NCBI GenBank assembly: GCA_048593225.1
Contig: CM109176.1
Span: 477,563,429 to 477,627,428 of the forward strand
Reading direction: 5' to 3'
Length of the DNA stretch: 64,000 nucleotides
DNA from: Sarcophilus harrisii
Taxonomy: Eukaryota
Shown in pieces: positions 2,860 to 58,542 of this stretch (the first letter of the stretch is position 1; every line of letters begins with the position of its first letter). Made by a program: the position numbers and the translations under genes. The notes beneath the pieces were generated by a model, which searched no databases, was not told the DNA's origin, and worked only from the letters and a program-made list of their open reading frames with translations.

Positions 2860-3626
2860 GTGAGCTATCTTTTGAAATTAGTGCATTTATATCTAAGTAG
2901 CAGTCTGAATATCTTTTTATATTTACTTGTAGGAATGATTTCGCTCTACTCCATGATAGAATTCTTTTCTTTTACTTTTGTTTTGCCACCTGCTTCCTTC
3001 CCTTGTGTCTCTCTTTCCTTCCCATCCCTTCCCCCATTCTCTTTCATGCACATACACATAGTAGATTTAATTACAGATCCAGTATGCTGCAGTCACTGTG
3101 AGAAGATAGATAGATACAGGTTAAGTATGTGTAATTATCATTGTCTTTTCCTCTTAATCACATAAGAATAGGACAGTGATAGAGTAGAAAAGTCATTAGA
3201 ATAGGAGCTGAAAGGCTTTAATTTTAGGCCTACTTTGCTTCTTACTAGCTATATGTCTTCCAAAGAATCAGTTAAGTTTGAATTTTGGTTTTGTCATATC
3301 TTGCATTATCTCAAATACTTGTTAGGATCATATGAAATGATATATGTAAAATCATTTTGTAAACATGCTATTCCTAAAACCTTTAGAATTTTTGTTTTTT
3401 AGTACTAGTATTATGTGATTTTTTTTTTTTGGGGGGGGGGGGGGTTTGATTTGTGACATTGGGCTTCTGTTTTTTGACCCAGCATGTTTCCCTTATACTG
3501 CTCTACTATACCTGATTTTTTTTGGTCCAATTCTAGAGTTTTAAGAACCTTTATTCTGGTTTTATGTGAATTTGAAAGTTTTGACAGTTTGTATGCAAAC
3601 TAAATATTTCCCAATTCATGTCGTAG

Positions 3627-3768
3627 GGGAAGGTATACTGCCATGTTGGGAGAAAATGACTGAACAGTTACCAGAAGGGAAAGAGATTACAAACTCAAAA
3701 AAACCTGGTGATTCTTCTGATATTAACAATGGAAGAAAATTGTTAGCAATATCTAGTATTGAAGAAAG
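3627..3768 (+). CDS. CENPJ: CENPJ coding exon; GEGILPCWEKMTEQLPEGKEITNSKKPGDSSDINNGRKLLAISSIEE(R)
   Basis: Acceptor tcgtag|GG and donor GAAAG|GTATCT. Phase 1 in, phase 2 out. Resembles human ESILSYWEKPMEEP... Confidence 0.8.
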
Positions 3769-4827
3769 GTATCTATGTCAATTAACACAGATATTACTTG
3801 TGTTTTTATTTATATCAAAGTAGTGTAGTTGAATGTGAGTCATTTATTAAGTGGTGGGGAATCCTTTTAATTAATAATGAAAAATATGTTTCAGTTCAAT
3901 TAAAAGTATTAAATGTGTAATTGTTTTGTAAAAGGTATTATTCTGGGTATGCAAAGATTAAAAAATAATACTCATTTTACTAGAAGAATAAAATGCACAG
4001 GCATAAGTATAATGCCAGGTAAGATGTTATAAGGGCTTGGGAGAGAATACTTTTAGCTGAGTTATTAGGAAAGGGCTAAAGAAAAAGAAAGATTCTAAAA
4101 GGTAGACATATGGAGGGAGTATATTCTGGGTATGGGAGGAGGTGGGACTGTGTAAATGTGAGACCCATGGGAAATAGCAAAGTTCTGGGAACAGTTGGTA
4201 GGGTGGTTTGACTATTATATAAATTGTAAAGGCAAGTAAGTGTGGAAATAAGATAGAATGGTAGGGTCCAATTGTAGAAAGAATTAAGTTTTAGAATAAG
4301 GGGTTTGTACCTTATCCTTTGGGCCAGAACTTTTTTGATAATTCACTTTATTAGCAAAAGTTTGTACATGCACCCAATTATGTATTTATACATTATTTAC
4401 TTATACTATTATGTTAATAATTATGTACCTTATGTAATATGAACGATGATCCTGCAGAAGTGTGGTCAGACAGCAGAAGGAAGGGAGAAAGCAGTGTCAT
4501 AAAAACACAGAAGGAAGACACAGTTGTGTCCAAATATCCTGGAGAGAGAGGCATTGTTAAAAAATGAGAATTAGGAAAGGGACATTAGATTGGACAATCG
4601 AGAGATCATTGCTAACTCTGAAGAGAGAACTTTGATTTAGGTAGGGAGTTAAGGATAAAGGAGGTTGAGATTCTGGGAGAGTATGTGGAAAGATAGTGGC
4701 ATTTCCCAACCCTCATCTCCAGAAATAAATTCAGATGAGTAATGGCATTTGGGGGAATGATAATACAATTACAATCCAACTATATTTAAATATCCTGGCT
4801 TATTCTTTTCCACAGAAAAATAAAGAG

Positions 4828-4872: not shown

Positions 4873-6850
4873 CAGGGGGTAGAGGGGGAGGTCGAAGGGG
4901 TTTAAGTGTGGGGAAAGGGTTGGAAGGAACTTCCCTGCTCTGGAGCATGGAGCCTGCTGCTGTGGTGATTTGGGAGAATGGGATGTGGGAAAACTAGGGA
5001 TAGTGGCATTAGAAATTATCCTGCTAACTCTTTCAATTGCTTGGGCTGGAATAGATTGTTTTCTCTAGTCTGAGGAGTCCAGACCCGGTGAAGCCATAGG
5101 TCATCTGGGGGAAGGAGAAATATTGAAGAGAATCATAGGATTGTGTAAAACACAAATCCATTATTGGCTATGGCCGGTTGAGCCAGGGGAGGGTGGATGT
5201 GATCCATGTTCCTACCATCTTGTTGATCACCCATCCCTTGGAGCCATTACATAGCCCTTACTTTGGTGATCACTTCTCTAGGCCATGAGAACCACTGAAG
5301 GCTTTTGAGCAGTGGAATGAAGATGGTCTGAAAGATGACTTGGAGAGGAAAAAGACTGAGGTAGGGAAACCAGTTGGGAGGCTAGAGTAGAAAGTAGAGA
5401 TAGATGGCCACCCTTATTACCTCTATTTACTCCCTTCTCACTGTCTCCAATTCTTCGCAATCTAGATTTTGACCTCATGACTAATTTGAAATTCCCCTCT
5501 CTGTAATTGACACTGTTTAATACTCTTTGCTCTTGGGTATTATCTCCTCTCTGGTATTTGTTATACTGTTCCCTCCTAGTTCTCTTTCCTTTGTGACTTT
5601 TTTTTCCAGTTTCTTTTGCTTGCTTATTATCCTTATCACAACTTTTAACTGAATGTGTCCTGGACCCATTGTCTGGCTTGGTGATGTCATTAGCTTCCAT
5701 ATATTTAACCATTATCTCTAAGTTGAGAATTCCTACATCTATATTTTTGCCTCAGCCTTTTATCTGTAGTTCTGCATTATTGCTTATTTATTGGCCATTT
5801 TAAACTGGATGCTCCAAAGACTTCTCAAACTCAACCTGACCAAAACAGAATTTCTTGTGACCTCCATCTGTCTCTCACAGATCTATCCTTTTTCCAACTC
5901 TCCTTATTCCTTTGAGAGTGCTATTCTGTAATCTATCCAGTATTGTAATGTTGGAAATTCAAATACTTCTGCACTATTCAAATAATTGATAGAGCTTGAG
6001 ATTTGTCCTTCCACGGCATTTCTCCATACACATGATCATGGTTTTAGTACCTTATTACACTTTTGCCTAGATTATTCCACAGGCCTCCTAATCATTTTCC
6101 CTCCCTCCAGGTTATTCTTCACTCTGCTAATTAAATCTTTTTCCTTAAATGTAGATCTCACTATCCATCCCCTTCAACGTGAAATTTTTCCATTTCCTCT
6201 CCAACTGTTAGTGCCCTCTCTCTATTTCCTCCTTCCCTCAATACCTTGTACTTAGTTACTTTGTAGTTATTCTCTCTCTACTTAGATGTGTATTGGTTGT
6301 CTTCATTGGAAGCTCCTTGAGTTAGGATTTTTTTATTCTTTGTATTTGCATCCTCAGGTTTTTTGTATAGTATCTACTATTTAGTAGTCAATAAATGCTT
6401 GCTAATTAGATGGATTTAATTAGATGTTGTCAATATGGAAATGACAAGATGTGGCACCTGAGGGAGAGGGAAGATGACAGAGGTTTTTAAGTCTGAGTGA
6501 CTGGCTTTCCATATAGATGGGGAAACTGATCTTTACAGGAGAGGGATTTGACTAGGGTCACACTATGAAGTAAATAGTACAAGTATGATTCTTTCCATTA
6601 TATTCATGGGGAAATAGACAGTAAAAGACTGGCTCAGAGTTGAATAGCTGATAAAAATCATAGGCAGCCTTTTGAGTCCAGATCTATTTAAGATTTTTTT
6701 TTTTTTTTTTTTTTACTATTTAAGTAATTTTTTTTTTTTAAACCATTCTGTTTAGTAGATTCAGATTCTTGAATAACAACTATGAAAATGGATGGTGAGC
6801 CTTATATACTACAGGGCTAAATACAACATAGCATTTTTCTGTTATTTTAT

Positions 6851-6967
6851 CTGCATAACCACAAAAGCCAAATTCCTTATGAGGAGTTGTAATAGAAGAT
6901 ATAGTTCCCCTGGCTATACCTTCTATTACAACTCCTCATAAGGAATTTGTCTTTTGTGGTTATGCAG
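6851..6967. repeat. Foldback inverted repeat: 48-bp arms (1 mismatch) around a 21-nt loop
   Basis: Left arm 6851-6898 ctgcataaccacaaaagccaaattccttatgaggagttgtaatagaag. Reverse complement of right arm 6920-6967 is ctgcataaccacaaaagacaaattccttatgaggagttgtaatagaag. Confidence 0.85.
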
Positions 6968-7019
6968 AGGAGGCTGTAATCTTTAACAATGAAGTATTTC
7001 TGAAATGAAAGGAATACAT

Positions 7020-7224
7020 CCTACACTGGGGTCCTCAAACTACGGCTGGCAGGACAGATGTGGCAGCTGAGGACGATTATCCTCCTCATCCAGGACTATG
7101 AAGTTTCTTTATTTAAAGGCCCATAAAACAAAGTTTTTGTTTTTACTATAGTCCAGTCCTACAACAGTCTGAGGGACAGTGAACTGGCCTCCTATTTAAA
7201 AAGTTTGAGGACCCCGTCCTACAG
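7020..7224. mobile_element. MITE-like non-autonomous DNA transposon remnant (~205 bp) with terminal inverted repeats
   Basis: 5' end cctacacTGGGGTCCTCAAACTacgg. The reverse complement of the 3' end (..AGTTTGAGGACCCCgtcctacag) gives ctgtaggacGGGGTCCTCAAACT. The interior is AT-rich and non-coding. Confidence 0.5.
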
Positions 7225-8661
7225 CATTGTTTATCTTATTGGAGGGTAAAAGTGAGAACACTTTGCAAACTTCTTAATGCTCTACAAGTGGTGATTGTTA
7301 TTTTTGGTGTGATTATTGCTTTTATCATTATTGTTACTATGATTTTCTAAAGTAGGGGTTCTTAACTTTTTTTATATCACAGACTTCATTGGCAATCTGT
7401 TGAAGTCTGCCTTCCCCTCTCCAAAATGTTTTTCTTTTAACTCATAATTTTAGAAAATACTTAAGTTCACTAAAGGTTAGAGGAAATAAAGATATAATTT
7501 TCTTCCCATCCAAGTTGACTGACTCCATGAAATTTTTCCATGAATACCTGTTAATCTAGAGGCTTTAGATTATCTGGAGAATAACTCAGCCAAAATAGGA
7601 TAAGTGGATAACAATCAGAACAAAAACATTCTGGGGAGACCTCTTTTAAGAGGTTTGCAGTGCTGTCAGCAGAAATAGGGAACTTGGGAGGGAATTGCAG
7701 CATATGAGACATTTATTCAATGTTATATGTGAGTTTGAAGTCCTGGTGGAATATCCAGAGAGGTTGAGCAGGCACTTAGAGACATGGGACTGCAGTGAAG
7801 GAAGAGATTAAGAGTAGCTATATTGATTTCACTGTATATAGAGGTGAAAATTGAGACCTTCAAACCAAGTGAGAACATCAAGGGAGAGAACTGATAGAAA
7901 AACAGAGAAGAAGTCACCAGACAAGACACTTAGGAGAAGATGAACTTTTAAAGAAGAATGAGAAGGAATGTTCAGATAGTTGGGAGGAGAACCAGGTAAG
8001 AACAGTGTCACTGGTATACTATAGAGGGAGGCAATCAGTCTGATTGCAGATTGCAGCAAGGACATCTACTGATGCTATTTTCTTTTATCTTTTTTTGTTT
8101 TTTGGCGTAAGGTTGAGTGTGAAACTTGATGCTTAGGATTAGCTTGTGAAGGAGACGGCAAATTTGGTAGTTTGGGCATTGTTGTACAAGTAGTATAGAA
8201 GTTTTTTACTTGAGAAAAGTCTTTACATTAAGTATTCTTAGATGTACTTATTCAATCTCTGTGATAAATCTTAGACAAAAGGGGAAAGCAAAAGTATAAA
8301 AATTCACATATTTGATAGCATTTTCCAGTTTTAATTTGCTAATTTAGTTATAAATCCTCATATGATGGATGCTTGAACAATTTTTATCACAGTGTTAAAA
8401 TATTTCACGTTGAAATGATAACTTTTTTATATTTCTTAGTGTAGAATGTATTATGTGGACTCATTCTGATCTGTTTTGTTAGAGTGTTAATGTATCAGAT
8501 TTATTTGCTTGGATTTTTGTTTTTTAAAATGGTTTATTAAACAGTAAAATAACCTTTTAAAGTTTCAAACGTATGGTTCTTAGAAATCTCAATGTGGCAC
8601 TTAATTTTAAAGGTTTTGCCATCAGGATTTATTTGCTTTATAATTTTATTTTCATTATTAG

Positions 8662-8764
8662 GCCAATTAAAGCTGCTATTAGAGAAAGGAAACAGACATA
8701 TGAAGAATTCTTAGAGGAACAGATTCAGATAGAAGAACAAGAATTGAAACAAAAGCAGCTACAG
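8662..8764 (+). CDS. CENPJ: CENPJ coding exon; (R)[34 protein letters not shown]
   Basis: Acceptor ttcattattag|G and donor CAG|GTTTGC. Phase 2 in, phase 0 out. Coiled-coil-like composition. Confidence 0.8.
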
Positions 8765-8900
8765 GTTTGCATTTTAGATGTTTTGACAAAAATATCCCAA
8801 TAAAAATTCATCATTAATATATAACTTCCTTTAAAAATACTTTGACCATTACTCAGTAATATAAAAAAATTAATTAAAATATATATTTTTTATTTTTTAG

Positions 8901-10467
8901 GAAGCAGAAATGTCATCATTAGCCAAAGCAATACCAAAACGGCCATTCTTAAAAAGAGGAGAAGGCCTAGCTAGGTTTACTAATGCTAAATCTAAAGTTC
9001 GAAAACCAAAAGAGAATAAATTAATGACTCATCAAAGCATGTCAGAAGAACAGCCAGTATTTAAAGCAGACAGACAACAAATACAGCGGAAAACTGCTCT
9101 TATAAATAAGGAACCAGTTACAGAGATGAAAAAGAGTAATCAAGTCAGAAACAAAACCAGTAATGCAGTTTCTCTGAAGTCAAAAGTACTTAGAAGTAAT
9201 AATGGGAAGAAATTTGATGGACAGCTTAAAGATCAAATGAAATTAGAAAAAAATAATAAGTTAGAACCTAATAAGGAAAATATACCAGAGTGTACAAAAC
9301 CCTTTGAAATAGGTTGCAAAGTCAAAAATAAACCACAATGCATAGAAAAGCCTCTTATTTCTACAGAACTGACCAATCCTGCCTCTGTTTCTAAAAGTTC
9401 TATGGGTCATATTGTAAAAGATTCAGACTTTTCTTTTGAAATTTCATTTCAAAAGAAATTAGACAATTGGGAAAAGGAAAAAGAAAAGGAGAACTTGGAG
9501 TTAGATGAATTTTTGTTCTTGGAACAAGCTGCTGATGAAATATCATTCTCTAGTAATTCCTCATTTGTATTAAAAATCTTAGAAAGAGACCAGCAGATTG
9601 GCAAAGGCCATAGAATGTCTTCTACCCCTGTCAAATCAGGGCAACAAGTAAAAGCAAATATAACAGATGTTGTTATTCCACACAACCAAAATAAGAAATC
9701 AAATCATATTAAACAAGATAAGAATATGTATGAAATAACAAAACATCTTGAATCAAAAGCATCACCTCAAAGTTTGAAAGAACAGATCAGCAAAGTCAGC
9801 AAAAAACCATTTCAAAATATTACTTCTGAGAGTCAAATCAAATGGAATGTAAGTGAGGATGAAGATGATGGGAACAGTGGTGTTAGCAGTGACTTTGAAG
9901 AGCATCTTGATAGTACCATAAAAGCAACAAATGAAGATACTAAAAACTTTTACAGCAGCAGCAGAGAAGATAATCCACAAAAGGGTGATGGTAAAGGACC
10001 TTTCAGAGACTCTAGGAAGGAGGGTAAAAACCGGGATATTGATCTGGATTTGTCAGATAAAGATGACAGTAGTGATGAATCCATCATAGTGGTAAGCATG
10101 AACGATAAAATTCCTAAGGCATCATGTGTAAATATGAATAAAATTGATTTTGATGATGAGAGAACATGGACTGACTTTGAAGAAAATGAAAGTAAAGATG
10201 ATGTACTTGGGAATGAAGATGTTAATGGGCTTCCTTTGATGGACTATTGTAGTAAAACTGAAATATCTAATTTGGACAAAGCAATAAAAAGGAAGGTTGC
10301 ACCCATAAAGAAAGGAGATGATTTGTGTAAATCCAGTAAGAGTATAAGCCCTCCTCCTACTAATGATCTGATGATGAAACTCTTTCCTTCCTTGAAGCCT
10401 AAACCTAGATCAGACCCACACTTAGCATCTGAATCTGAATTAAATAAAAGCCAAGAACAACCACTTG
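8901..10467 (+). CDS. CENPJ: CENPJ large central exon (1567 nt; equivalent of the human ~1.6-kb exon 7); EAEMSSLAKAIPKRPFLKRGEGLARF ... SQEQPLG
   Basis: A 522-codon uninterrupted frame (the ORF track entry 8910-10478 sits inside it). Acceptor tattttttag|GAAGCAG and donor CTTG|GTAAGT. Serine/acidic-rich, low-complexity composition typical of the CPAP central region. Confidence 0.9.
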
Positions 10468-11440
10468 GTAAGTCTTAATATTATCAGAAACTAAAGATTT
10501 ATCAAAATGTCATAAAGCTTAAATTTTTTTTGTGATTTCTATTTAGTAAGATCAGTTATTTGAAACCCTTAGGTTTCCTTTACTGATGTGTCATCAATAA
10601 AACATTTTTTTTGTTTGTATATTCCCATATAAGGTACTGTCCAGGTACCTCCTCACCAAAGATGTACAAGTTGTAATATGGACTCCTGTGGAGTTCACTG
10701 TCCAGGAGGAGACATGGGTGTATATAGATTACTATAGTACAATGTTTGATGTAGTAAAATATCAAGAAAATGCTCCAGGAACATAGTGGGAGGAAGTTTA
10801 GTAGACCTGACCCAAACATTAGTAAAACGGTTTAGAAGATGAGGGAAAGACATGTGGTTTTTAGTTTCCTAATTCCATATGTTATTCATTAATATACAAC
10901 CCAGTGATAGTCTAATGTCTTTCATAAACAATAAATATTCAACTTCCAGTTTTGTCATAAAGGGAAAGTTTAAAGGAATTCTTGTTTATGCACCCTTATT
11001 TCACCAATATTCTCACCCTGGAGTATCAGCAGACCTCTAATTTATCTCTAAAAATTTATGCCTTTATATAGCAAATTTGAGAGATGAGAATGTGTATATG
11101 TGTGTAAGATAGGAGGAACCTGTTTGCCCAAAACATCAAACTGGCAATGTCCATCTCATCTTTAGAATCTGACTGTATGTAACTTTAGTACCCAGCACAG
11201 TGTAGGTGATTTGTGATAGAACTTATAACATTCCAAGGGGCAGTGATATATGGTTCTTTTTATATATAGACCTCAGGTGCTTTCTTTAGAGAAATTAAGC
11301 CTATTTTTAATAATAGAAGCAGATCTTTTAAGTCATTTTAACTCTAAAATGTTTATATATTGTCATCATTTAATAATAGCAAGATTTTACTCTGTTTTCT
11401 GATTACAATTCAGCATTCATATTAATTTGATATGTTGTAG

Positions 11441-11573
11441 GTGATAGTGTTCGCTCCCAGATTTTAAAAGAGAAAGTTGTTGAATTGGAAACAGAAATCG
11501 AAAGATTTAAAGCTGAAAATGCATCATTAGCTAAACTTCGCAATGAAAGAGAAAATGCCTTAGAAAATCTCAG
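11441..11573 (+). CDS. CENPJ: CENPJ coding exon; [44 protein letters not shown](R)
   Basis: Acceptor tatgttgtag|GT and donor TCAG|GTAAGT. Phase 1 in, phase 2 out. Coiled-coil heptads. Confidence 0.85.
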
Positions 11574-13489
11574 GTAAGTTTGTGTAATAAGTGTGTGATA
11601 CATTGACTAAGGAGAGGATATATGAATTTCTTTAGGAATAGAATTAAAAGCAATTAAATTTTGGAATACTACTATATGTTTCGTGGCCAACAAAAACGTC
11701 AAGGATCTCCATGAGGATCTAGTGATAACTCATTTTTTCATGTAGAAAAATGTGTAGGGAAATGATTGTCTTCAATACCGGTTGAGTATTCTTAACATTT
11801 AATCTTCCTTTCTTATGAAAGGCAGCTTACCAAATTGGTATACTGGCCTCTTAGGCTTCATTGTTTAACTTAGAGCATAAAGATTGAAAAGTGCTTACCC
11901 CTTAATAGCGATGCTTACTATATGCCAGGCACTGGGCTAGATGTTTAATCAGCTCTTCAGAAAAAATAAACATAAGTTTTCAGTGGTAACTTAGCCCATA
12001 CTTAATTTCTTCAGATCTCTGATAACAGATTATTTTTATATAATTGTATTCTGAGTATATATAATCTTTCCTGTACTGTTTTTTTTGTTGAGCATTATTT
12101 TATAGAGATAACCACATTTCTGTCTTCTTCATAATATGTCAATATATAGAGAGAGTCTTCATTTTTACAAATATTCTATGGTAGGCACTTAGCACAAGAT
12201 CACACAGTGATCTCCACCTCTTCTGGAATTTATGTTCTATGAGGAGCAGATATTAATGTGATATAATCTGTTTAATGATTCTTTAATTTAAAAAAATTTA
12301 TTAGAGTATTGGCAAGATGTTTATGAAAACCATGAATATCTTTTATTTACATTTTTAATTTTTCTCAATTACATATAAACAAAATTTTGTAACTTAATCT
12401 TTTTTAAAATTTTGTAAGAAAAAAAAAATTTGCGTTCCAAATTTCCATCCCTTTTACTCTTCCATCCTTGAGAAAGCAAAACAGTTTGATAGAAATTATA
12501 CATGTGCAGTCATATAAAAGATTTCCATATTAGTCATGTTGGAAAAGAATATGCAGACCACAAAACAATAATAAAGTAAAAAAAGTATGCTTTAGTCTCC
12601 ATTCAGACTCCATCAGTTCTTTCTCTGGAGGTGGATTACATTTTTCATTATAAGTCCTTTGGAACTGTCTTGCTTCATTGTATTGCGGAGAATAGCTAAA
12701 TCATTCACAGTTGATCACCGTCAATATTATTGTTACTGTATACATACAGTGTTCTGATTTTGCTTACTGCTCATGTAAGTCTAGGCTTTACTGAAAACAT
12801 CCTGCTCTCTCTTTTCTTCTCCCTCCTTGAAAACATAAGCAATTTAATTTTGATTATACAAGTGAAGTCATTTCCATTTTAGCCATATTTATAAAAACCT
12901 GTATCATAAAAGTGGTGTCATCATGCAGTTTCATTGAAGTTAATTGTTTCAACTGGTTTTTAGTTGATTCTCTTGAAATATACCATTGAGATGAATGAAA
13001 AGGCTTAGAGACAGTTTCGGGTAATTAATAATAAATTAGGTTAACTGATAATCACTAAATTGATAGTCAGTGGTTTCTCCTACTAACGAATCCATCCATG
13101 GAGATTCCTGAATGCTGAAATACCTTTGGAAAAAGAGGTGCACTTGTAGGTTAAAAAAAAAAAAATCAACCCTGATAGGTGAACCTTTGATTAAAGGGTG
13201 GGGCATATTAATGAGATGGATTAAAAGTCTTAAGCTCCTTCTGTTGAGAATGTGACTTGATTGTGTGACTCAACTGCCTCCAGGAATCTGAACAAAAGAA
13301 TCCATCTCTATCCAGTCCACATTGGTTGGTTTTCTCCTTCATAAACTGGATTACCCTATACCAGAGTTTCTTAAATTTTATCCACCCATAATCCCTTTTT
13401 GACTAAGAAATTTTCATGGTTCTCTGGGTGTATAGGCTTTTAAATTGGTGTATAAATCAAACATTTACTGATAATAAATCATATTTTCT

Positions 13490-15010: not shown

Positions 15011-16970
15011 TTATCCTTCTCTTTTTTATCCTGAACGTCCTTTAAAATCTATTGCTGCTTATTTTATCTGCTTTCCCTTTTCTCATCTCCCATCCCTTGT
15101 TTTCTTTCATTTCCTTCCCTTCCCACTTCCTTATTGAGTAAGATATATTCCTGTTTGGAAGAGAGAGAGCTCTGCAAAGGCTTTCTCTTGTCATCTTGCC
15201 TTCATCCCAGTAGAGGGTGTCCTCAACAGTAATAGGGAAATTTAGTAAGTGGAAGGGTTTTGGACATGTGAATTTCATAATGCCAGTGAGACATCCAGAA
15301 AGAAATGTCTGATAAGCAGATGAAGACATGGTTTTGGGGCTGAGAAGAGAGACTGTGGTTGGATAATATAGATGTGGCATTCCTCTGCATAAGAGATGAT
15401 AATTAAATCCATGGGAAGTGATGAGAATCAAGAGAAGAATCTTAAGAGATGCAGTTAAGAAGGATAATTAACTAGATTAGATGTTCAAAAGGCATTTGAT
15501 AATATAAGGACTGTAGATTGGGAGACTAGTGCAAGAAAAATAGACGCAAACAAACGTGTTTATACACACACATACATATAAATTATATATATACACACGT
15601 ATATTGATTTATATTTTGGATATCATGTACACATATATATATATATATAAATGTACACATATATCTTCCCATTTTATAGATGAGGAACTGCAGATTTTAA
15701 CTAGGCACACAGTTTAGGGCACACAGATAGTAGATGTCTAAGGCTGGATTTGAATTCACATCTTCCAGACTCCGATTTTGATGCTCTATTCTTTATGCCA
15801 TGTTGTTGCCTGAGAAAGAATATGTGCATGGAATCATGGAGGGCTTTGAATTTGGATTCATTAAGTAATGGAGTATTACTGAAGATTTTTGAACAGGTAG
15901 GTGACATTTTTAGAAAGATTAATCTTGTAGCAATGTGTAGGGTAAACAGAATCCCAAATATTACTTATTAAATTATTGTAGTAATCTATGTGAAAGGTAA
16001 CAAGGGCCTAAAGTCAGAATGTGATTATTTGGATTGCAGAGGAAACAGACTTTGAGATAACACAGTAGGCTCAGTTTGAAATGGCAGTTTAGATTTGGAC
16101 AGGGAATTGGAGGTGTATAAAACAAGACCATGTAAACTTTGCTTTCTCAGAACCAGCTTATGAACTGATGCTGTATTCTACCATCAATGGACAAGCTAGA
16201 GGGAGATAAGGCTACAAAATAGTATTAAATCCTATAACCTGGGAAATTGCTATTCTAAAGAGGTATATTTGCTACTCTTTTCATTTAAGAAGAAATTCAC
16301 AGATTTGACTGACTAGCAAACTAAAGGTTATCATAGTGTGACTTCATCAAAAAGAATGACTATATATTTCTAGCCCCATTCTTTAACTTTTGTTTTGAGC
16401 AGGAGACAGTTATTATTAATATAGATATAAAATTACATATGTGAATGTATGTGTTTATGTACACAGACACATACATACACAATCTTAGAACATGAAGGAT
16501 TTTTAATAGCTCATTCTGCAGTTGCAGAAACTGAGGCTAAATTAGAATAAATGACTTCTCCAAAAATCACACAAACAGATCTAGAATAAGACAGATAGTC
16601 TGATTCCGGATCTAATATACTTTTATATAGGCAAGCAAAAATTAAAAGTTGCATTACCTTATTCCTTGGTTATGTTGGAGAGTTCATAGCTGTGAATTAG
16701 AAGTTTAGAGACTATCCAGAAGAAATGTATGTGTGATAACTTATCGATAACTGTAGCCCAGTTGTTTAACTATCTTAATTTTGCTCTCTTTATGGACATC
16801 TGATATAACTGAAAATATTTCCATATTTAGGTAAATGTTTGTCTCATGCTAGTTCTCTGATTTTGTCGGTGCAGGTTGTCACTTAAAATTCCTTTTGATT
16901 TGACATTTAGATTACTCTATTAGATGTTTATTATAGATGATAAGATGTATTTGTATTTTAATCAATTTAG

Positions 16971-17136
16971 AAAGGAGATTGCAGACTTTGAACAGCAGAA
17001 AGCAAAAGAATTGGCTCGAATTGAAGAGTTTAAAAAGGAAGAAATGCGAAAGCTACAAAAAGAACGCAGAGTTTTTGAAAAATATACTACAACTGCAAGA
17101 GCAATTCCAGATAGAAAGGAACGTGAAGAAATTCAG
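16971..17136 (+). CDS. CENPJ: CENPJ coding exon; (R)[55 protein letters not shown]
   Basis: Acceptor atcaatttag|A and donor TTCAG|GTATGA. Near-identical to the recalled human CPAP segment [33 protein letters not shown]. Confidence 0.85.
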
Positions 17137-19084
17137 GTATGAGAGCTCTTTGTAGTAGAGCATACAAGGTATGCAAAGTTATAGAATTGATATTGATAGG
17201 CTAATAATAAAAAATGTCAGTAATACATTGTTATAGAATTTTTGTTATGGATCTACAACAGATTCATTTCTTAATCTCAATAATTTTAACTGTTTTGTAA
17301 GTATGATGTCAAAATTCTCCTAAATGCATGCTAAATGCTATACAACACTTATAAGTAACATCAGTTAGAAATAACAGTGATACTAGAAGATTATTTGAAA
17401 ACAGACATATATTGCACATAATGTTTATATCTTGGCATTTTTAATATTCATTAAGGCAATGATTTTTCATAGTAAAAGATGGTAATAGTTTTTCACTGAC
17501 TATAGTTTCTTTATTCATTAGATTAAGATTAAGAAAAAATTCCTTTCATGTTTATCTACTAACTTGAAATAGATTAGATTTGGGAACATTTTCTTCGCTG
17601 TGTCCTTCAGCCTATAATCTTGACTTCATTGATATTGTTTCTATACAGATGACTCCCAAATCTTGCTGTAGTCTTTCTCTTTAAGTCCAGTGGCACATCT
17701 TCCAATTATCTGTTGGATATTTTAAAATGGATATCCTTTAGGCATCTCAAATTCAATATGTCTCACACTTAAATTTTTCTTTTTCCCAAACCTTTTTGTT
17801 GTTTGCACCACTTTCCCTGAGTCATCATATAGGTTTGCAACCCTGGTGTCATCCTTGACTCTGTTCTTTGTCACTCCATAGATCTCTCGTCAGTCGCCAA
17901 ATCTTACTTCTCCCTCTACAACACTCCTTCTCTTTCTTCATGTAGCCTTAGTTCACAATTTCATTACCTTTTGTCTATTCTAATATAGTATCTTCCTAAT
18001 TGGTCTCCTTGCCTGAAGTGTCTTCTTCCACACAAATATTAAAGGATTTTTTTTTTCCTAATGTACAATTCTGATCATGTTATTTTCTTGCTCAATAAAT
18101 TTTAATAGTTTCTTGTTACTTGTCAGTTCAAATATAAGCACCTCTGTTTAGTTTTTTAGTTTAGTTTTAGTAGGTTTCCAATCTACTCCTAATCTCTTAT
18201 TTCCAGCTTTAGAACATATCGTTGCAGCCTTCTGGCCATTCTGTGTGCTCTTTTCCTGGCTGGTCCCCCATCCCTGGAAATGCTTCTCTGTCTTGCACTT
18301 TGTTTCCTTTGAAACTCTTTACATATGCTGCCTTCATTATAAAAGCCTTTTGATTATCCCACTCATGCCCTTCCCACCATAAAGTCATCATATATGTGCA
18401 TGTACACATATTGTCTTTCCCATTAGAATGTAAGCTCCTTGATAGTAGGACAGGGCTTTTTCTTTTTCTTCTTTTCAGTTCTGAGTGCTTGGCAGAATTG
18501 TCTTCATGTCTTACATATCCCCTTGTCCTTTTATTTCCTGTTGTCACCATCCATACTTAAAGACTTGGCTGTTGCAATAATTTTCTCACTGCTCTGTCCT
18601 GTCCCTTCCCTGTCATCACCTCCTAACTTTAACCTGTTCCCTGATTTTTCTTTCTAAAATAGCCTTTTTTTTTTTTTTTTTTTAAAGAACTACTCTGCTC
18701 AGATCTTAGCTGCCAGCAGGATAAAATTCAAACCCTTTATCCTAGAATTCAGAGCCTTAGCTTCAACTTAAACTTTTATATTTTTATAATGCTTAATGTT
18801 TCTACAGAATCGTGCTTCTCTAGCCAAAGTGATACACTCATTATGTCCTTGAAAATATCTTGTGCTTTGCCTCCCTGGCCCTTTGTTTAAACTCTGTCCT
18901 TTATCTGAAATCTCCCCCTCATTTAATCTGCTGACCAAAGTCTTTCAGTGGACAGACAATTTAAACTTGGTTTATGTTAATCTTTCATAATTTCCCCATC
19001 CAAAATGTGTTATTGTTTCTTCCAAACTCCTTTACCACTGCTGTGTGATATTTAATATATACAAAATTTTTGTATTTATTATTT

Positions 19085-19255
19085 TAAAAAAAAATTTCTT
19101 TTTTTTTTGGCTGAGGCAATTGGGGTTAAGTGATTTACCCAGGGTCACATACCTAGGGAGTCTTAAGTGTCTGAGGCCAGATTTGAACTCAGGTCCTCCA
19201 GACTTCATGGCTGGTGCTCTATCCACTGCACCACCTAGCTGTCCCTGTATTTGTT
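19085..19255 (-). mobile_element. Marsupial tRNA-derived SINE, reverse orientation (poly-T at 5' side)
   Basis: Reverse complement of the same SINE as at 152-316: ...GCTGAGGCAATTGGGGTTAAGTGATTTACCCAGGGTCACATA...GGTGCTCTATCCACTGCACCACCTAGCTG. Confidence 0.85.
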
Positions 19256-19497
19256 ATTTTTGTTATGTGTCTTCTTTCCCTACCACACAAACAGATGGTG
19301 GTCAGAGTACCATTTGTCCTAATTTTTTTTTTTGCATATACCCACAATATCTAACAGTTTCTTGGATATAAATAAATGCTCAGTGTATTTAACTGCATGT
19401 CTTTGTCACTTACGGATCTATTCGTTCTATAAGCAGCTTGATAAAAATGTTGTTTGAACTTATTGAGCACTTGTGGATATTTGCTTCTCTTTTGAAG

Positions 19498-19740
19498 GCT
19501 TTAAAACAACAAATAGCAGATTTACAAGAAGAGTTGAAGCGAAAAGAGACAAAGTGGTCAAATACACATGGTCGCCTTAAAAGCCAAATAGAAACATTAG
19601 CTAAAGAGAACACAGATCTTCGAGAAGAGATAAAAGTTATGGAACGGTTTCGACTTGACGCCTGGAAAAAAGCAGAAGCTATTGAAAACAACTTAAAGAA
19701 TGAACATTCCCTATTTTCTATGAAAAAAGAAGAGTCTACA
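19498..19740 (+). CDS. CENPJ: CENPJ coding exon; [81 protein letters not shown]
   Basis: Acceptor cttttgaag|GCT and donor ACA|GTGAGT. 243 nt, phase 0 both ends. Matches human [21 protein letters not shown]...[15 protein letters not shown]. Confidence 0.85.
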
Positions 19741-33316: not shown

Positions 33317-33457
33317 ATTGAAAAGGTTTTAAAAAGTGGGTGCCATGTTATCTTGTTTCCAAATGGAACCCGGAAAGAAGTGAGTTCAGATGGAAAAACT
33401 ACCACTATTACTTTTTTCAATGGAGATGTGAAAAAAGTCATGCCAGATGGAAGAGTG
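33317..33457 (+). CDS. CENPJ: CENPJ G-box/TCP10 C-terminal domain exon; [47 protein letters not shown]
   Basis: Acceptor (T)n ag|ATT and donor GTG|GTATGT. Matches the human CPAP G-box motif strongly ([44 protein letters not shown]). Confidence 0.9.
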
Positions 33458-33587
33458 GTATGTTTCCATATATATTTTCTACCCCTTTATGTTTCACATA
33501 CACACACACAGATAGTTTTTGTATAGAACTATATATGTATATGTGTTGTACATTCCCCCCCCCACACACAATATGAGCAAATCGTAG

Positions 33588-33698
<111 letters not shown>

Positions 33699-33810
33699 TG
33701 ATTTTTTTTTTTTTTTTTGCAATTCCGTCTCTGCTCCTATTTACTCTCCAAAGCAATTCAAAATGAGAATTCAGGTTCATGTCATACAATATACTATATC
33801 TTTAAACCAG

Positions 33811-33931
33811 AAAAGCATTTTCCAGATGGAAGAAAAGAAATCACATTTCCTGACCAGTCCATTAAAAATTTATTTGAAGATGGGAGAGAAGAAAGCATTT
33901 TCCCCGATGGTACCATTGTTCGAGTACAACA
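33811..33931 (+). CDS. CENPJ: CENPJ G-box exon; (E)[39 protein letters not shown](Q)
   Basis: Acceptor tttaaaccag|AA and donor CAACA|GTAAGA. Phase 1 in, phase 2 out. Matches human [40 protein letters not shown]. Confidence 0.85.
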
Positions 33932-34997
33932 GTAAGACTTGCTTAAATCTAACAGTATTTTTAAAATTGCACTCTGGCTTTTCTTACTAATGTCATTTCA
34001 CTCTCATTCAAAAACAAACTTGCACATTTTGTATTCTGAGTGTCAGATATTGATTAGGTCATTAGTTAAGACATACTGCAAATAGATAGCATCTTTACCC
34101 TAATAAATTTAGCACTGGTTAATAATCTAATCAAAAAACTGCATATTTATTAAACTCTTAACATTCAGATATTCTATATAAATAATGCATGAGCAGATGA
34201 TGATAAATTCAAGTCAGTGAATGTTTCCTGACAGCATTATTATTTTAGTTGGATCTCAGGTAGGAATGAATTTAGGAAAGATTTGTGTGTATACTGACAG
34301 GGTAGCCTAACAGCTAGCATGATTAGCATTTGATGAGATAAAGGAAAGGCACTATACAGTTTTGTAGTAGCTATGGACTAGATAGTTGCAGAGATGTGCA
34401 TGAAGACCATGTGCTTGCAGTAATCAAAGCATAAGATTAGAAGGTCTGGACCAAGATGATCAAAACAAAGAAAGGGTCATATTTGAAGAGTCATATTTTT
34501 CCTCCAATTTAAAAAAAAAATAGAATTTATTAATAAGTAGGTACAGAAGATAAAGGTACACAGCAGTTTTATTGAACTCTATGGAACATGAGAGCTTTTG
34601 GTAAAGAAGATAACAGTAAATAAACACAGTTTCTACTATAACATGCTTGGATTTTAGTGTGGCATCAAGCACAGAGGCAAAAGGAGATATAATATTAGGT
34701 TAGAACCCTGAAACATGAGGAAATTAGATGCAAAATCTGTAGAGGGAAGGGAGAACTGAATTTTGACTGCATATGAGGAACATGTGTGTGTGTGTGTGGG
34801 GATTGGGAGTGAGGAGAGTGTGTCTGAGGAACCAACTTGGGGGGGGTTGGGAGTGAGGAGGGAGTATCTATGAGGAACCATCTATTGAAGACAAAGATGG
34901 AGAAAAAATTGGGAGCTAATATTATTGGAGGTAGTGGCACCTCCTACATATAATGGGAAGAGAAACGTTAACTAAATTATTTTTTTTTTTTAAATAG

Positions 34998-35190
34998 AGA
35001 TGGCAACAAAATAATAGAATTTAACAATGGCCAAAGAGAACTTCACACTCCTCAGTTCAAGAGACGAGAATATCCAGATGGGACCATTAAGACTGTATAC
35101 TCTAATGGCCACCAAGAAACAAAGTTTATATCTGGTCGAGTAAGAATTAAAGATAAGGATGGAAATGTTTTGATGGACACCAAGTTGTAG
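34998..35190 (+). CDS. CENPJ: CENPJ terminal coding exon with stop; (Q)[63 protein letters not shown]
   Basis: Acceptor (T)n aaatag|AGA and stop TAG at 35188-35190. Matches the human CPAP C-terminus ...RIRVKDKEGNVLMDTEL*. Confidence 0.9.
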
Positions 35191-52271: not shown

Positions 52272-53263
52272 TTTTTTTTTTTTTGAATCTTTTTTTTTTT
52301 TAAATTTATAGCCTTTTATTTACATGATATATACATGGGTAATTTTACAGCATTAACAATTGCCAAACCTCTTGTTCCAATTTTTCACCTCTTACCTCCC
52401 CCCCTCCCCTAGATGGCAGGATGACCAGTAGATGTTAAATATATTAAAATATAAATTAGATACACAATAAGTATACCCGACCAAAACGTTATTTTGCTGT
52501 AGAAAAAGAATCAGACTCTGAAATATTGTACAATTAGCTTGTGAAGGAAATCAAAAATGCAGGTGGGCATAAATATAGGGATTGGGAATTCAATGTAATG
52601 GTTTTTAGTCATCTCCCAGAGTTATTTTTCTGGGCATAGCTAGTTCAGTTCATTACTGCTCCATTAGAAATGATTTGGTTGATCTCGTTGCTGAGGATGG
52701 CCTGATCCATCAGAACTGGTCATCATATAGTATTGTTGTTGAAGTATATAATGATCTCCTGGTCCTGCTCATTTCACTCAGCATCAGTTCATGTAAGTCT
52801 CTCCAGGCCTTTTTGAAATTATCCTGTTGGTCATTTCTTACAGAACAGTAATATTCCATAATTTTCATATACCACAATTTATTCAACCATTCTCCAACTG
52901 ATGGACATCCATTCAGTTTCCAGTTTCTAGCCACTACAAAAAGGGCTGCCACAAACATTCGTGCACATACAGGTCCCTTTCCCTTCTTTATAATCTCTTT
53001 GGGATATAATCCCAGTAGTAACACTGCTGGATCAAAGGGTATGCACAGTTTGATAACTTTTTGAGCATAGTTCCAAACTACTCTCCAAAATGGTTGGATT
53101 CGTTCACAACTCCACCAACAATGCATCAATGTCCCAGTTTTCCCGCATCCCCTCCAACAATCATCATTATTTTTTCCTGTCATCTTAGCCAATCTGACAG
53201 GTGTGTAGTGGTATCTTAGAGTTGTCTTAATTTGCATTTCTCTGATTAATAATGACTTGGGAG
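52272..53263 (-). mobile_element. 5'-truncated L1 (3' UTR plus C-terminal ORF2), antisense, with 17-bp TSD
   Basis: TSD TCTCCTTTTCAAATGTT at 52255-52271 and 53264-53280. The 175-aa minus-strand ORF at 52710-53237 (…HCWWSCERIQPFWRVVWNYAQKV…DPAVLLLGLYPKEI…) is the typical L1 ORF2 C-terminus. Poly-T at 52272-52310 is the A-tail. Confidence 0.9.
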
Positions 53264-54539
53264 TCTCCTTTTCAAATGTTGCTGAAGGAAGTCACGTAAT
53301 TTTGCTGCCTGGGTTTGCTGTAAGTCATAGTTATCTAATCCTGGAATAAAGAAGTCTTCCCCTAACTGATTCTCTTTCCCACTCTCCCGAAAGGCTGCCC
53401 CAACCTCTTTTTCAAGCCTCTCAAAGTAACTCTTCCCCATTTGATCAAGGTCCTTGACTCATAATAATAAAAAGGCCATTTGCCATGATCTTTTATAGAG
53501 CAGAAACTCCATTAATTCAAAATCCTTTGATCTTCTTTGCTCTGCCCTTTACTCAAGTTGAAAGGCAGCCTCTTTCCCCACAAAATCAAATCCTTACACG
53601 TAGCCCAAATTCTGTCTAATCCTCTTATCTCTGTCAGACTGTCCCTAAAATAAGTCCTATAATGTATATCATCTTCAATCTCTATTGTTTCTCTCTAATC
53701 TACAAACCTTGTAAAGTTTCTCCATCTTTAAAAAATGTCCACGAGATCCTACCCTCTCAAATTGCTGTTCTAAATCTGTCCTTCCTTTCACAGCTAAATA
53801 CCTAAAAAAGCTGCTGTTATTTCTTGCTTTTCCTTCTCCCTTCTCAACTCTTGGCAATATGGAGTCTGACGTTATTACACACGACTGAAATAATTTTCTA
53901 TAAAATTACTAGTGATTTCTTAATTACCAAATATAATAATTTTTTCTCAATCATCATCATTTTTTAAAAATAATAACTTTTTTTTCTCTAAACATATGCA
54001 TGGATAATTTGACAATATCAACTCTTGCATAGTCTTGTGTTTCAGACTTTCTCCTCTTTCCCCCTGCCCCCTTCCTTAGATGGCAAGCAATTCAATATAT
54101 GTTAAACAAATAATCATCTTCTTAACTTCTCTATAAACTTGACTCTGCTGATTTATTTTTTTTATGGATATTCTCTCCTGTCTTTGTTTTTTAAAAACTG
54201 CTATGATGTAGAAACCATCTCCTTTTCTGGATCATCATCCATTTTCTGCCTTTTAAATGGACATAATGCAACATTTTGTCCGAGATCTGTTTTCATTTCC
54301 CTATATAATCACTTGACTTCATCAACCCCTATGGGATTAATGGTAACATTTCTGCAAATGATTTCCAGGTCTACATATTTATCCCAGTCTCTATCCTTAT
54401 ATACAGTGCCCTGTCATCAACTGACTGTTGAATGTTATGAACTTGCTGTTCCACATGAAATTAAAGTCAGACCCAAAGCACAATTTGGCATCCTCTCCAA
54501 AACTGCCACTTCTGAACTATCCCATTTATGATACCACTA

Positions 54540-54660
54540 TTCTTTTTTTTTTTTTTTTTTGCTGAGACAATTGGGATTAAGTGACTTGCCCAGGGTCACA
54601 CAGCTAGGAAATGTTAAGTGTCTGAGTTCAGGGCTGGTGTTCTAACCACTACACCACCTA
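54540..54660 (-). mobile_element. Marsupial tRNA-derived SINE, reverse orientation
   Basis: (T)20 gctgagacaattgggattaagtgacttgcccagggtcacacagctagg...ggtgttctaaccactacaccacctagcc. Confidence 0.85.
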
Positions 54661-55255
54661 GCCTTTTGATGTTCTCCTTGATTCTTCAAATATCCAACAT
54701 GTCCTACTTATGTAGTCAGTCATTCATTATATTTGCCATTTCTACTTGTTTGAAATTTTATTTGTTCCCCTCTTTTTACTCATGCAGCAGCCTCCCTAGT
54801 TCTGATCGTCATTATTTTGACATTTGGCTATTACACTATTCTTTTTATCATTCAGGTTTGCAAGTTTGGGAAGAGAAGCAATATAAACTGATAGAACAAG
54901 TTGGGAAGGCCCTTCAAAAGAAGGGGAATCACTGAAATTTTCTGGGTAGAGAAGTAATTTGATCAAACATGGGTTTTTACACATATTACCTTGGCGGCAT
55001 TGTGAAGAACCAATGGGAACAGAAAGAAACTAGCAGCAGGGAAAGGCAATCAGGAGACTGCCACAATAGCCAAATGTCAAAATAATAAGGACCAGAACTA
55101 GGGAGGTTGCTGCATGAGTAAAAAGAGGGGAACAAATAAAATTTCGAACAAGTAGAAATGGCAAATATGATGAATGACTGACTACATAAGTAGGCCATGT
55201 TGGATATTTGAAGAATCAAGGAGAACATCAAAAGGCTATCTTGGGGAAAGTAATT
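54661..55255. repeat. Large inverted duplication: arms ~54661-54845 and ~55060-55250 (about 90% identical in reverse complement) separated by a ~215-bp spacer
   Basis: The ORF track shows mirror peptides (54618-54935(+) and 54986-55294(-) both contain LLMFSLILQISNM.YLCSQSFIIFAISTC.KFYLFPSFYSCS). Direct comparison confirms reverse-complement identity of the arms. Confidence 0.8.
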
Positions 55256-55751: not shown

Positions 55752-56487
55752 CTATTAAGTACAATTAAGAAGTAGTTAAATTTCAAAACGGTATTGATTT
55801 AACTTGAAAATTGAGTGTCTATGTTCATTCCACAAAACTACAATTATGCTCCCTAAAAAACAATATGGTTTTGTAAGTCAGAGCACTAAATCACAAGTTT
55901 TTTCCAAAGTATTTTTCTTTACTTATAAAGAGCTATAATGTGTTGTACTATGTGATAATGACAGCTATCATTCATCTAAAAATTAAAAGTAAATAAAATG
56001 CTTTCTTCACAGTAATTCCATGAAACATGTAGTGAGGCATTTTTATCCTCTGTCAAGATGTATACAGAAATGACTTGCTCAGGATCACATCACTATTAAA
56101 TGACAGAGTGAAATTTTCTCATCCTAGTTCCAGAATTGTTTTAATCACACAATGTCTAAAAATGGCATATTTGAGTCTGGAACTCAAAATCCAATTAAGA
56201 AAAGAATACTAAAAATAAATAAGTTAAGGGAAAAAAAAAAAACTATCTGTACACACCTTTGTTAGTAGTCATCTAAAACAACGATGTACTAGACCTCATT
56301 TAGGTTGTAGCTGTCCATTCTGCTAAACACTTCAAGTCTAGAGCATCACTCCTTTCTCTTCCCCCACAAAATGTTCCTAGAGAACTGACGGCTAAGTTGA
56401 TTTTCCAAAGCATTGTTCTGAATACCATTTCCCTATTCAAAAATGGTGCAATGGTTCCCTAAAATCCTTTCTCTGAAAAATTTCCAG

Positions 56488-56520
56488 TTCTACCGCATCT
56501 GTCTGCCAAGAGTTTCCAAT
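56488..56520 (-). pseudogene. Partial duplicate (decoy/pseudo-exon) of the RNF17 exon at 57536-57616. It shares the acceptor and the first 33 nt (IGNSWQTDAVE), then diverges and reaches an in-frame TGA after 27 codons with no usable donor
   Basis: Direct repeat: + strand ~56484-56715 versus ~57580-57815, about 93% identical and including the ttatcccaattag acceptor. Copy 1 on the minus strand reads IGNSWQTDAVELEIFQRKDFREPLHHF*. Confidence 0.6.
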
Positions 56521-57535
56521 CTAATTGGGATAAAAATGTTATCTTCCATGAACAAAAAAGAAAACAGAACAAGAAACTGTCTGATATACAAAAGCCAGAG
56601 AATCATAATGAAATTATGTTCAAAATAAAGTTCCAAAAACCTCACAAAGGTAAATATTATTGCATTTTGGTTTGCACCTATGACCCCACTGTTGTAATGA
56701 ATCCTACAACTTACTATTTACATGTTACCATATTATTATTTCCTAAAATCCAATTCTTGCTCCCACTAAATTCCTTTCATTATTTCTCTACAGAAATATT
56801 CCTTTTTGCCAAATTATATACTGTTTCCAAAACAAGGTTCAGTGAAAATCATATTGTTGTTTCAAGGCAAATAAACTTTTCTACTTTTCCCTCGACATTT
56901 TCTTGTGATGTCCAGGCCTGAAGTCTAAATCTAGAATCACTACTCATTCACAACTCACATCTGCTACTCTCAACTGTTTTTGGTCTTTGCATATACAAGG
57001 CTGTCTCTTTGGAGAAATAAGCCTTTTTTTTTTTTTTTTAAAAAGAACTCTGAAGGTTGCCCCATAGATAGCAACACTCTCATACTGCATGAATGTTTCT
57101 TCTTTTAGTTGAATATGTCTCTTAAAAGCAAAGGATCATGGTCAGAGTTTTAAAGCTGAAAGAACCTTAAAAGTCAGCTAGTCTAACCCTCTTATTTTAA
57201 AGAGAAGGATATTAAAACTCAGAAGGATCAAAAGACTTGCCCAAGATCACAATGGTATTAAATGTGTCTCAGATTTCTAAACAAACTCCTTTAAATCTAA
57301 ATCCCATATTATTTCTGCTCCAGCTTCCTTTGACCAGGCTTAATATTGCTGCATACCACACAAAGTAAAATTAAGTTAAAATTTAGTTACTGAAAACTAA
57401 AATGAAGCTTATAAATATTCTGTGTGCCCTTTAAAAAATTTAGATTTAGATATTAGTTATTCTCTCAAATTAATATTTTTAAGGAATTCTTATGACATAT
57501 CAATACAAATAACTGCTTAAACATTAATGAGTTAC

Positions 57536-57616
57536 CATGTTATGAATTTCTACTTCTCTTTTTGGTAGTAGTTCTTGAAGAAGTTCTACTGCATCTGACT
57601 GCCAAGAGTTTCCAAT
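57536..57616 (-). CDS. RNF17: RNF17 coding exon; [27 protein letters not shown]
   Basis: Acceptor ttatcccaattag|ATT and donor AACATG|GTAACT. 27 codons, phase 0 at both ends. Parallels human [27 protein letters not shown]. Confidence 0.8.
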
Positions 57617-58542
57617 CTAATTGGGATAAAAATATTATCTTCCGTGAACAAAAAAGAAAACAGAAGAAACTGTCTGATATAGAAAAGCCAGAGAATCATA
57701 ATAAAATTATGTTCAAAATAAAGTTCCAAAAACCTCACAAAGGTAAATATTATTGCATTTTGGTTTACATCTGCGATTCCACTGTTGTAATGAATACTAC
57801 AATTTGTTCACAATATATGGTTTTAGAGAGTTGCCCAGGGTCACATACCTACTATGGACAGGGGTGGGATTTCAACTTAGGTTTTCCCGACTCCCATTTT
57901 TTAAAAAAACCTTTGAATCCAGTATTTTATCTATCATACCATAATGCTTCTCTTTTATATTTAAGTTGCAAAGTTCTTCTGTCTGAAATAATCTAAGGTG
58001 ATTTTATTAACTCCTACCTAACACTTTTATGAAACAGATTCTCCTAAAATTGGTCAATTGTATAACAGAAATAATAAGAAACATGTTCAAGCAAATACAA
58101 TTCTATTACGCTGAAACGCAAAAAGGAAAAAAGCACATTAGCAAGCTTAAAACTTCTTCACTTTTTTAACGCCCCCCCCCCAAAATACTTATTCCATGTA
58201 TAATCAAACCCTACACTTAACACTATCAGAAGGATCTTAGCTTCCCTTAAATTAAAACGTGTGCACATGCGCGTGCATGCACACACACGTGGGACATTTT
58301 CCAGGCACAAAAACACAGAATACCAAAAATAAAACAAATCAAAATATAAAATATGAATTCTAGGATTGTTTTTAGTATATTTATTAGTATACTAAAAGTT
58401 AGTATACTTGTTTGTACTATTGAGCATAAGTACTCCTTAGTCCTGGATTATCCTACGTCTTAAACACCGAGTATTGGAGCAATCATAATGGGAAGAATAT
58501 TTAGATTATTACATTTATGATACAACAAATCAATTTACTTAC

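Follow-up and report, generated by a model that had tools for sequence, protein, structure and literature searches.

In Sarcophilus harrisii an intron of CENPJ, a gene of the centrosome, contains a near-perfect DNA palindrome of 119 bp, located at positions 6850-6968 of the window, the whole stretch of 64,000 nucleotides analysed here. The palindrome is real and goes far beyond chance. Its structure, the lack of a second copy in the window and the lack of a target-site duplication (TSD) make it about an even call that it is a young, locus-specific inverted duplication, produced via template switch or snap-back synthesis, and not a mobile element.

Structure and folding of the palindrome

The inverted-repeat search delimited two arms of 55 nt, at 6850-6904 and 6914-6968, which are 96% complementary and have 9 nt between them. 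The left arm reads TCTGCATAACCACAAAAGCCAAATTCCTTATGAGGAGTTGTAATAGAAGATATAG, and the right arm is its reverse complement save at 6919 and 6950. When the arms were aligned base by base, 53 of the 55 positions were complementary, the exceptions falling at 6868 and 6899 of the left arm. At the former, C6868 stands opposite T6950, which gives C·U in the plus-strand RNA and G·A in the minus-strand RNA; at the latter, A6899 stands opposite C6919, which gives A·C in the plus-strand RNA and a U·G wobble in the minus-strand RNA. The symmetry centre, as placed by the sequence and the folds, lies in the spacer TTCCCCTGG (6905-6913), itself non-palindromic, and this spacer is bracketed by a 5-bp inverted microhomology, TATAG (6900-6904) and CTATA (6914-6918). 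Arms, spacer and mismatches are treated here as unstranded features.

A preliminary description of this DNA had placed arms of 48 nt at 6851-6898 and 6920-6967, with a single C/A mismatch, around a partly palindromic loop of 21 nt. Those two segments are indeed reverse complements with one mismatch, that of C6868 opposite T6950, and they are correctly placed, though the palindrome extends further, to 55 nt per arm. The 21-nt loop comprises the 5-bp arm extensions TATAG and CTATA, the pair 6899/6919 and the true 9-nt spacer, and its partly palindromic character fits with the arm extension inside it.

Folding, proposed as a check in the same description, yielded a very stable hairpin. The RNA fold of a 139-nt region had a minimum free energy of -85.0 kcal/mol on the plus strand (z = -15.4, with 0 of 200 shuffles as good) and of -86.6 kcal/mol on the minus strand (z = -16.5), both strands being comparably stable. 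Folded as DNA the hairpin reached -54 kcal/mol (z = -15.7), and no shuffle came near its RNA or DNA fold energies. A stem of 55-58 bp with a loop of 5-9 nt was predicted by the RNA folds, and RNA and DNA folds alike showed a loop of 5-7 nt closed at the spacer. Within a context of 521 nt the mean pair probability of the stem was 0.95, and the MFEI of the hairpin was about 1.9.

Inverted repeats were surveyed across the whole window with arms of at least 20 nt and spacers below 400 nt. One other inverted repeat of comparable quality was found, a 174-nt pair separated by a 232-nt spacer and hence of a different architecture; the remainder was microsatellite-like. The two 174-nt segments (54659-54832 and 55065-55238) are 96% identical, are the sole such pair in the window and adjoin a CORE-SINE fragment at 54533-54662. 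They represent either another young duplication in inverted orientation or two copies of some repeat placed head to head. The window also contains a segment of about 224 bp that is duplicated in direct orientation (56486-56709 and 57582-57802), with copies of 93% identity located 1.1 kb apart, and open frames running through both copies give near-identical peptides.

Host gene and sequence context

The window has a GC content of 33.7% and an observed-to-expected CpG ratio of 0.13, and there are no Ns around the hairpin. An open reading frame of 525 codons at 8901-10475 corresponds to the large CENPJ exon (PF25779; E-values down to 4e-141), whose best identity in a collection of 5.8 billion proteins was 53-54%. 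Exons were mapped by tblastn of four CENPJ proteins (P0010, P0012, P0056 and P0118) against the window. On the plus strand they were located at about 1057-1317, 3575-3769, 8660-8794, 8901-10496 and 11440-11574, and further downstream at about 16963-17157, 19501-19650, 33320-33932 and 34990-35181; past about 35.2 kb no CENPJ-like match to the four proteins was obtained in the window. The exons at 3575-3769 and 8660-8794 flank the hairpin, in agreement with its earlier assignment to a CENPJ intron, and define a plus-strand host intron of 4.9 kb with approximate limits at 3770 and 8659. The next exon follows 1.7 kb downstream of the hairpin, whose plus strand is sense with respect to the CENPJ pre-mRNA.

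The closest neighbour of the hairpin is a 191-bp element at 7026-7216, 57 bp downstream. It has perfect terminal inverted repeats (TIRs; 14 of 14 positions, GGGGTCCTCAAACT) at 7028-7041 and 7202-7215, and it is abutted by a 7-bp duplication, TCCTACA, at 7019-7025 and 7217-7223. This is the signature of a putative MITE of hAT type, possibly OposCharlie-like. No second copy of the element was found in the window, and its terminal inverted repeat was absent from the paper texts searched. On the other side, 110 bp upstream of the hairpin, the segment 6684-6739 contains poly-T runs of 23 and 12 nt, both of them following CTATTTAAG; it represents either a tandem duplication of 32 bp or a minus-strand insertion, by retroposition, of poly(A) only with a TSD.

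Interspersed repeats of other kinds occur elsewhere in the window. Copies of CORE-SINE/MIR type were observed at about 18990-19370, 54533-54662, 161-315 and 63040-63114, and they have exact 20-22-mers of the tRNA-like head in common (AGCTAGGTGGTGCAGTGGATAG). Judged from the sequence of these heads, which we take to be those of marsupial SINEs, the common oligomers indicate apparently recent SINE activity, as in marsupials. The base composition of the window and the 53-54% identity of the CENPJ exon are likewise consistent with marsupial DNA. At 52713-53291 the minus strand holds an open frame of 193 codons with the motif HCWWSCERIQPFW, on account of which we assume a resemblance to the C-terminal part of LINE-1 ORF2.

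Copy number and database matches

The palindrome is unique in the window: searches for the arm with up to 3 mismatches, by blastn at word sizes of 7-9 and by tblastx returned no second copy in the 64 kb. Similarly, the flanks (6300-7500) had no other copy in the window by blastn save for the poly-T, and tblastx revealed no hidden coding homology in them.

In a scan of the whole window at Rfam gathering scores no family reached its threshold. A permissive scan of 6000-8000 gave as best match MIR6462, a plant family, at 41.4 bits against a gathering score of 96; other sub-threshold matches, MIR7696 and mir-3192 among them, fell on both strands and corresponded to unrelated miRNA models from plants and animals. 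These matches rest on helix geometry only, and the hairpin is a member of no curated RNA family.

Arm 22-28-mers had no match in metagenome, prokaryote and viral collections, and a control 27-mer from the high-copy CORE-SINE/MIR core was equally blank in the latter two. Peptides spanning the hairpin, taken from the open stretches of all three pairs of arm reading frames, matched no protein, and neither did a SINE-derived control peptide. Because the controls were blank, the results from external collections carry no weight on hairpin copy number: the controls show that these collections are devoid of marsupial non-coding DNA, and blanks there say nothing on single-copy status. Among the paper texts searched, arm 15-16-mers were absent, apart from one chance match to a pig primer.

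Sequences abutting the arms

Cut-and-paste elements would be expected to leave a TSD at the arm ends. Direct repeats of 2-10 bp were searched for at boundary shifts from -2 to +7, and none abuts the arms. The sole TSD-like matches (GC, TGCA and AT, and TA by inspection) lie within the palindrome and are themselves palindromic, and they are therefore uninformative as TSDs. The TGCA candidate is at 6852-6855 and 6963-6966; for it to be a TSD, two flank bases would have to be complementary by chance (1/16), with the tetramer itself being palindromic as well, and for TA the number of such flank bases would rise to six (1/4096). The last bases of the left flank are ...TTTTA and the first of the right flank GGAGG, the only TA pair being internal (6856-57 and 6961-62). 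Next to the arms there is no duplication of TA, TTAA or TWA and none of 8 bp, and the two octamers that would make up a TSD of hAT type, TTATTTTA and GGAGGCTG, do not match. The flanking duplications for which the preliminary description had advised to look are thus absent at every canonical length.

Local alignment of the 25-bp flanks (CTGTTAT-TTTA against CTGTAATCTTTA) scored 7, a value matched or exceeded at 14% of 5000 random window sites. The flank repeats CTGTTATTTTA and CTGTAATCTTTA and the 9-mer GTAATYTTT were rejected as TSDs, being no better than chance. A Helitron was also discarded. Helitrons carry a 5' TC and a 3' CTRR located after a short hairpin, and they insert between A and T; the A/TC junction is present at 6849-6851, but no CTRR/T terminus is found after the hairpin.

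Origin of the palindrome

In the origin that we infer, a nascent 3' end would fold back, during replication or double-strand-break repair, and anneal through the central inverted microhomology TATAG/CTATA around the 9-nt spacer. It would then copy its own strand for about 50 nt and return to the original template. Such an event is known as an intrastrand template-switch mutation, and snap-back synthesis is an equivalent description of it. One arm would descend from the intron as it was before, the other would be the reverse complement synthesized from it, so that a single event would create a perfect stem with no TSD, and two substitutions would have been acquired since. The palindrome displays the features of such an event, namely a reverse complement of the immediately adjacent sequence, a short spacer and no TSD, and the 5-bp microhomology around the spacer is the geometry expected of loop-back priming. 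The other local duplications of the window (174 nt, inverted, 96%; 224 nt, direct, 93%) were counted as support.

The arms differ at 2 of 55 positions (3.6%, 95% CI 0.4-12.5%). At rates of 1-3e-9 substitutions per site per year, which were assumed by us, this divergence suggests an age of about 6-18 Myr, with a wide error and a plausible range of 1-60 Myr. With arms 3.6% divergent, the earlier opinion that so clean a hairpin can hardly be old neutral sequence appears reasonable, and among the origins then considered a very young foldback is the one that the evidence favours; nothing speaks for a palindrome-mediated rearrangement.

Template switching is known to produce perfect hairpins in one event (PMC10710096; Monttinen, Frilander and Loytynoja 2023). 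In primates more than 6,000 template-switch hairpins comply with a criterion of 30-55-nt stems, and at least 18 human miRNAs have arisen from hairpins of this origin (PMC10710096). The events have a mean length of 11.6 bp; in complex sequence they extend up to 90 bp, and overall lengths of 97-180 bp are attained (PMC9435742; Loytynoja 2022). A copy of 55 nt is hence long but documented for template switching, in the long tail with respect to the mean of about 12 bp. Like the catalogued hairpins, the CENPJ palindrome repeats adjacent unique sequence in inverted, near-perfect form across a short spacer, has no TSD, is single-locus as far as the 64-kb window lets see, and has a stem that tops the catalogued 30-55-nt class (PMC10710096). 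It differs from them in that they are defined by parent/child comparison and four-point alignment, whereas the palindrome is known from one sequence alone, in the length of the copy, far above the mean, and in that no small-RNA product of it is known.

The long arms and the short spacer are also the architecture of a palindromic MITE such as MADE1, and this is the main rival to local duplication. The hairpin would then be a MADE1-like element, mobilized by a trans-acting transposase and inserted in the intron, whose TSD has been lost, is hidden or is atypical; we regard this as possible, although clearly less probable than a local duplication. The inverted arms of 55 nt (53/55) and the 9-nt core fit such an element. 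At a density like that of MADE1, about one copy per several hundred kb, two copies of a family per 64 kb would not be expected, and a TGCA duplication at 6852-6855 and 6963-6966 is formally possible. Against it, no TSD abuts the arms: these are 96% identical, so that the TSD of a cut-and-paste element should have been equally preserved and still be present, and a hidden one needs chance palindromic flank bases (2 bp for TGCA, 1/16; 6 bp for TA, 1/4096). The neighbouring MITE at 7026-7216 keeps its TSD, which indicates that true MITE insertions in this stretch of the intron retain the signature that the hairpin is devoid of. Moreover, no second copy, even diverged, exists in the 64-kb window, and the termini (TCTGCATAACC...) are unlike the end motifs that we take to be those of Tc1/mariner, hAT and piggyBac elements. 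Marsupial genomes have harboured active DNA transposons and their MITEs (PMC4408412), one of which lies 57 bp away, and this favours the insertion of an element. MADE1 itself measures 80 bp, made up of two 37-bp TIRs and 6 bp, and its hairpins gave rise to mir-548 (PMC1784062; Piriyapongsa and Jordan 2007). The palindrome resembles this Hsmar1-derived element, the origin of hsa-mir-548, in its two long inverted arms with few central bases and in the highly stable hairpin that forms upon transcription from an intron, and departs from it in the absence of an abutting TA, of detectable sequence similarity and of any evident repeat family, as well as in arms of 55 nt instead of 37 nt. The MITE insertion contemplated in the preliminary description thus keeps the palindromic architecture on its side and is weakened by the missing TSD and the missing second copy in the window. 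If an old MITE had had its arms re-homogenised by template switching and had lost its TSD by decay, it would look identical to either origin.

Two further explanations are each very unlikely. One takes the palindrome as a by-product of another insertion or excision, either the hairpin-capped end left by a hAT excision (long P-nucleotides) or L1 twin priming, in a variant in which both cDNAs reach the 5' end of a short RNA. The hAT-type element 57 bp away speaks for the former, but the 8-bp TSD copy predicted at the inner arm end and at the opposite flank is absent. As for retroposition, minus-strand A-runs (6728-6739 and 6694-6716) are found about 110 nt past the hairpin, and the T-rich 9-mer GTAATYTTT has one occurrence beside the poly-T and another 7 nt past the end of the right arm; this TSD candidate is nevertheless of low complexity and no better than chance (by our estimate about 0.2 within 300 bp), and 6740-6850 contains no polyadenylation signal and no known SINE or LINE similarity. 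The other, of equally low probability, is an assembly or sequencing artefact, for instance a fold-back chimera, since palindromes are known from library and long-read chimeras and a single assembly was viewed. Artefactual fold-backs are, however, usually perfect and much longer, while here the arms have two differences and enclose a 9-nt non-palindromic spacer, and the whole measures only 119 bp and lies within unique sequence that is free of Ns and shows no coverage-type discontinuity.

Transcription and hairpin RNA

Since it lies in a sense intron, the hairpin is probably transcribed, as a predicted double-stranded RNA stem of about 55 bp in the CENPJ pre-mRNA. Such a stem would be raw material for ADAR editing or for processing by Dicer or Drosha, and it has no evident acquired function. 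A small-RNA gene would be an add-on to either origin, local duplication or MITE.

It seems improbable to us that the palindrome functions as a gene for hairpin RNA, whether as an intronic miRNA specific to the lineage or as a locus of endo-siRNA/shRNA type, expressed from the CENPJ pre-mRNA with selection keeping its stem. Such a gene would agree with the high stability of the stem-loop, whichever strand is folded, with its predominance over the surrounding sequence (pair probability 0.95, with an MFEI of about 1.9), and with a sense intron that supplies transcription. On the other hand, no Rfam family attains its gathering score (41.4 against 96 for the best), and the arm sequence occurs in no paper text searched. 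Canonical Drosha substrates have a stem of about 35 bp, an apical loop of at least about 10 nt and basal flanks that are single-stranded, with which an uninterrupted stem of 55-58 bp and a loop of 5-9 nt are a misfit. Furthermore, both arm differences disrupt pairing in the plus-strand RNA and neither is compensatory, so that nothing points to selection on pairing. The hairpin therefore has neither the curated family match nor the stem of about 35 bp with a larger loop that characterize a canonical pre-miRNA, and the pre-miRNA option of the preliminary description, with no Rfam match at threshold, a stem too long and a loop too short, is left unsupported. Young miRNAs are enriched in sense introns, where 81 of 99 intragenic miRNA loci associated with template switching reside (PMC10710096).

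A related possibility, which we judge slightly more improbable still, is that of a newborn small-RNA locus of the marsupial lineage, in which a template-switch hairpin would already be diced from the CENPJ pre-mRNA into phased products. The locus would be at the stage of a proto-miRNA or an endo-siRNA, its stem exceeding those of canonical pre-miRNAs by about 20 bp. Endogenous loci of long-hairpin siRNAs were reportedly described in mouse oocytes and ES cells, by Watanabe, Tam and Babiarz among others, in 2008. The palindrome shares with such hp-siRNA and shRNA loci a perfectly paired stem that exceeds a pre-miRNA and could yield several duplexes without Drosha. Theirs are, in contrast, defined by small-RNA reads, the palindrome being read from DNA letters only, and many of them are inverted pairs of repeat elements with much longer arms.

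Biological meaning

On present evidence the hairpin results from an event of an ordinary kind; it is not a new element or a new mechanism, and no effect on CENPJ is suggested. Stem-loops made by template switching have been shown to be a source of lineage-specific miRNAs in primates and rodents. If the hairpin were indeed a newborn small-RNA locus, this route of miRNA birth would be extended beyond those two groups, and an intermediate would have been caught before mutation trims its stem. If template switching is the right reading of its origin, the CENPJ palindrome would be a further clean example, from a non-eutherian mammal, of how one error can place a transcribed perfect stem-loop in an intron. 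The hairpin could moreover serve as a presence/absence marker in marsupial phylogeny, or act as a mildly fragile site.
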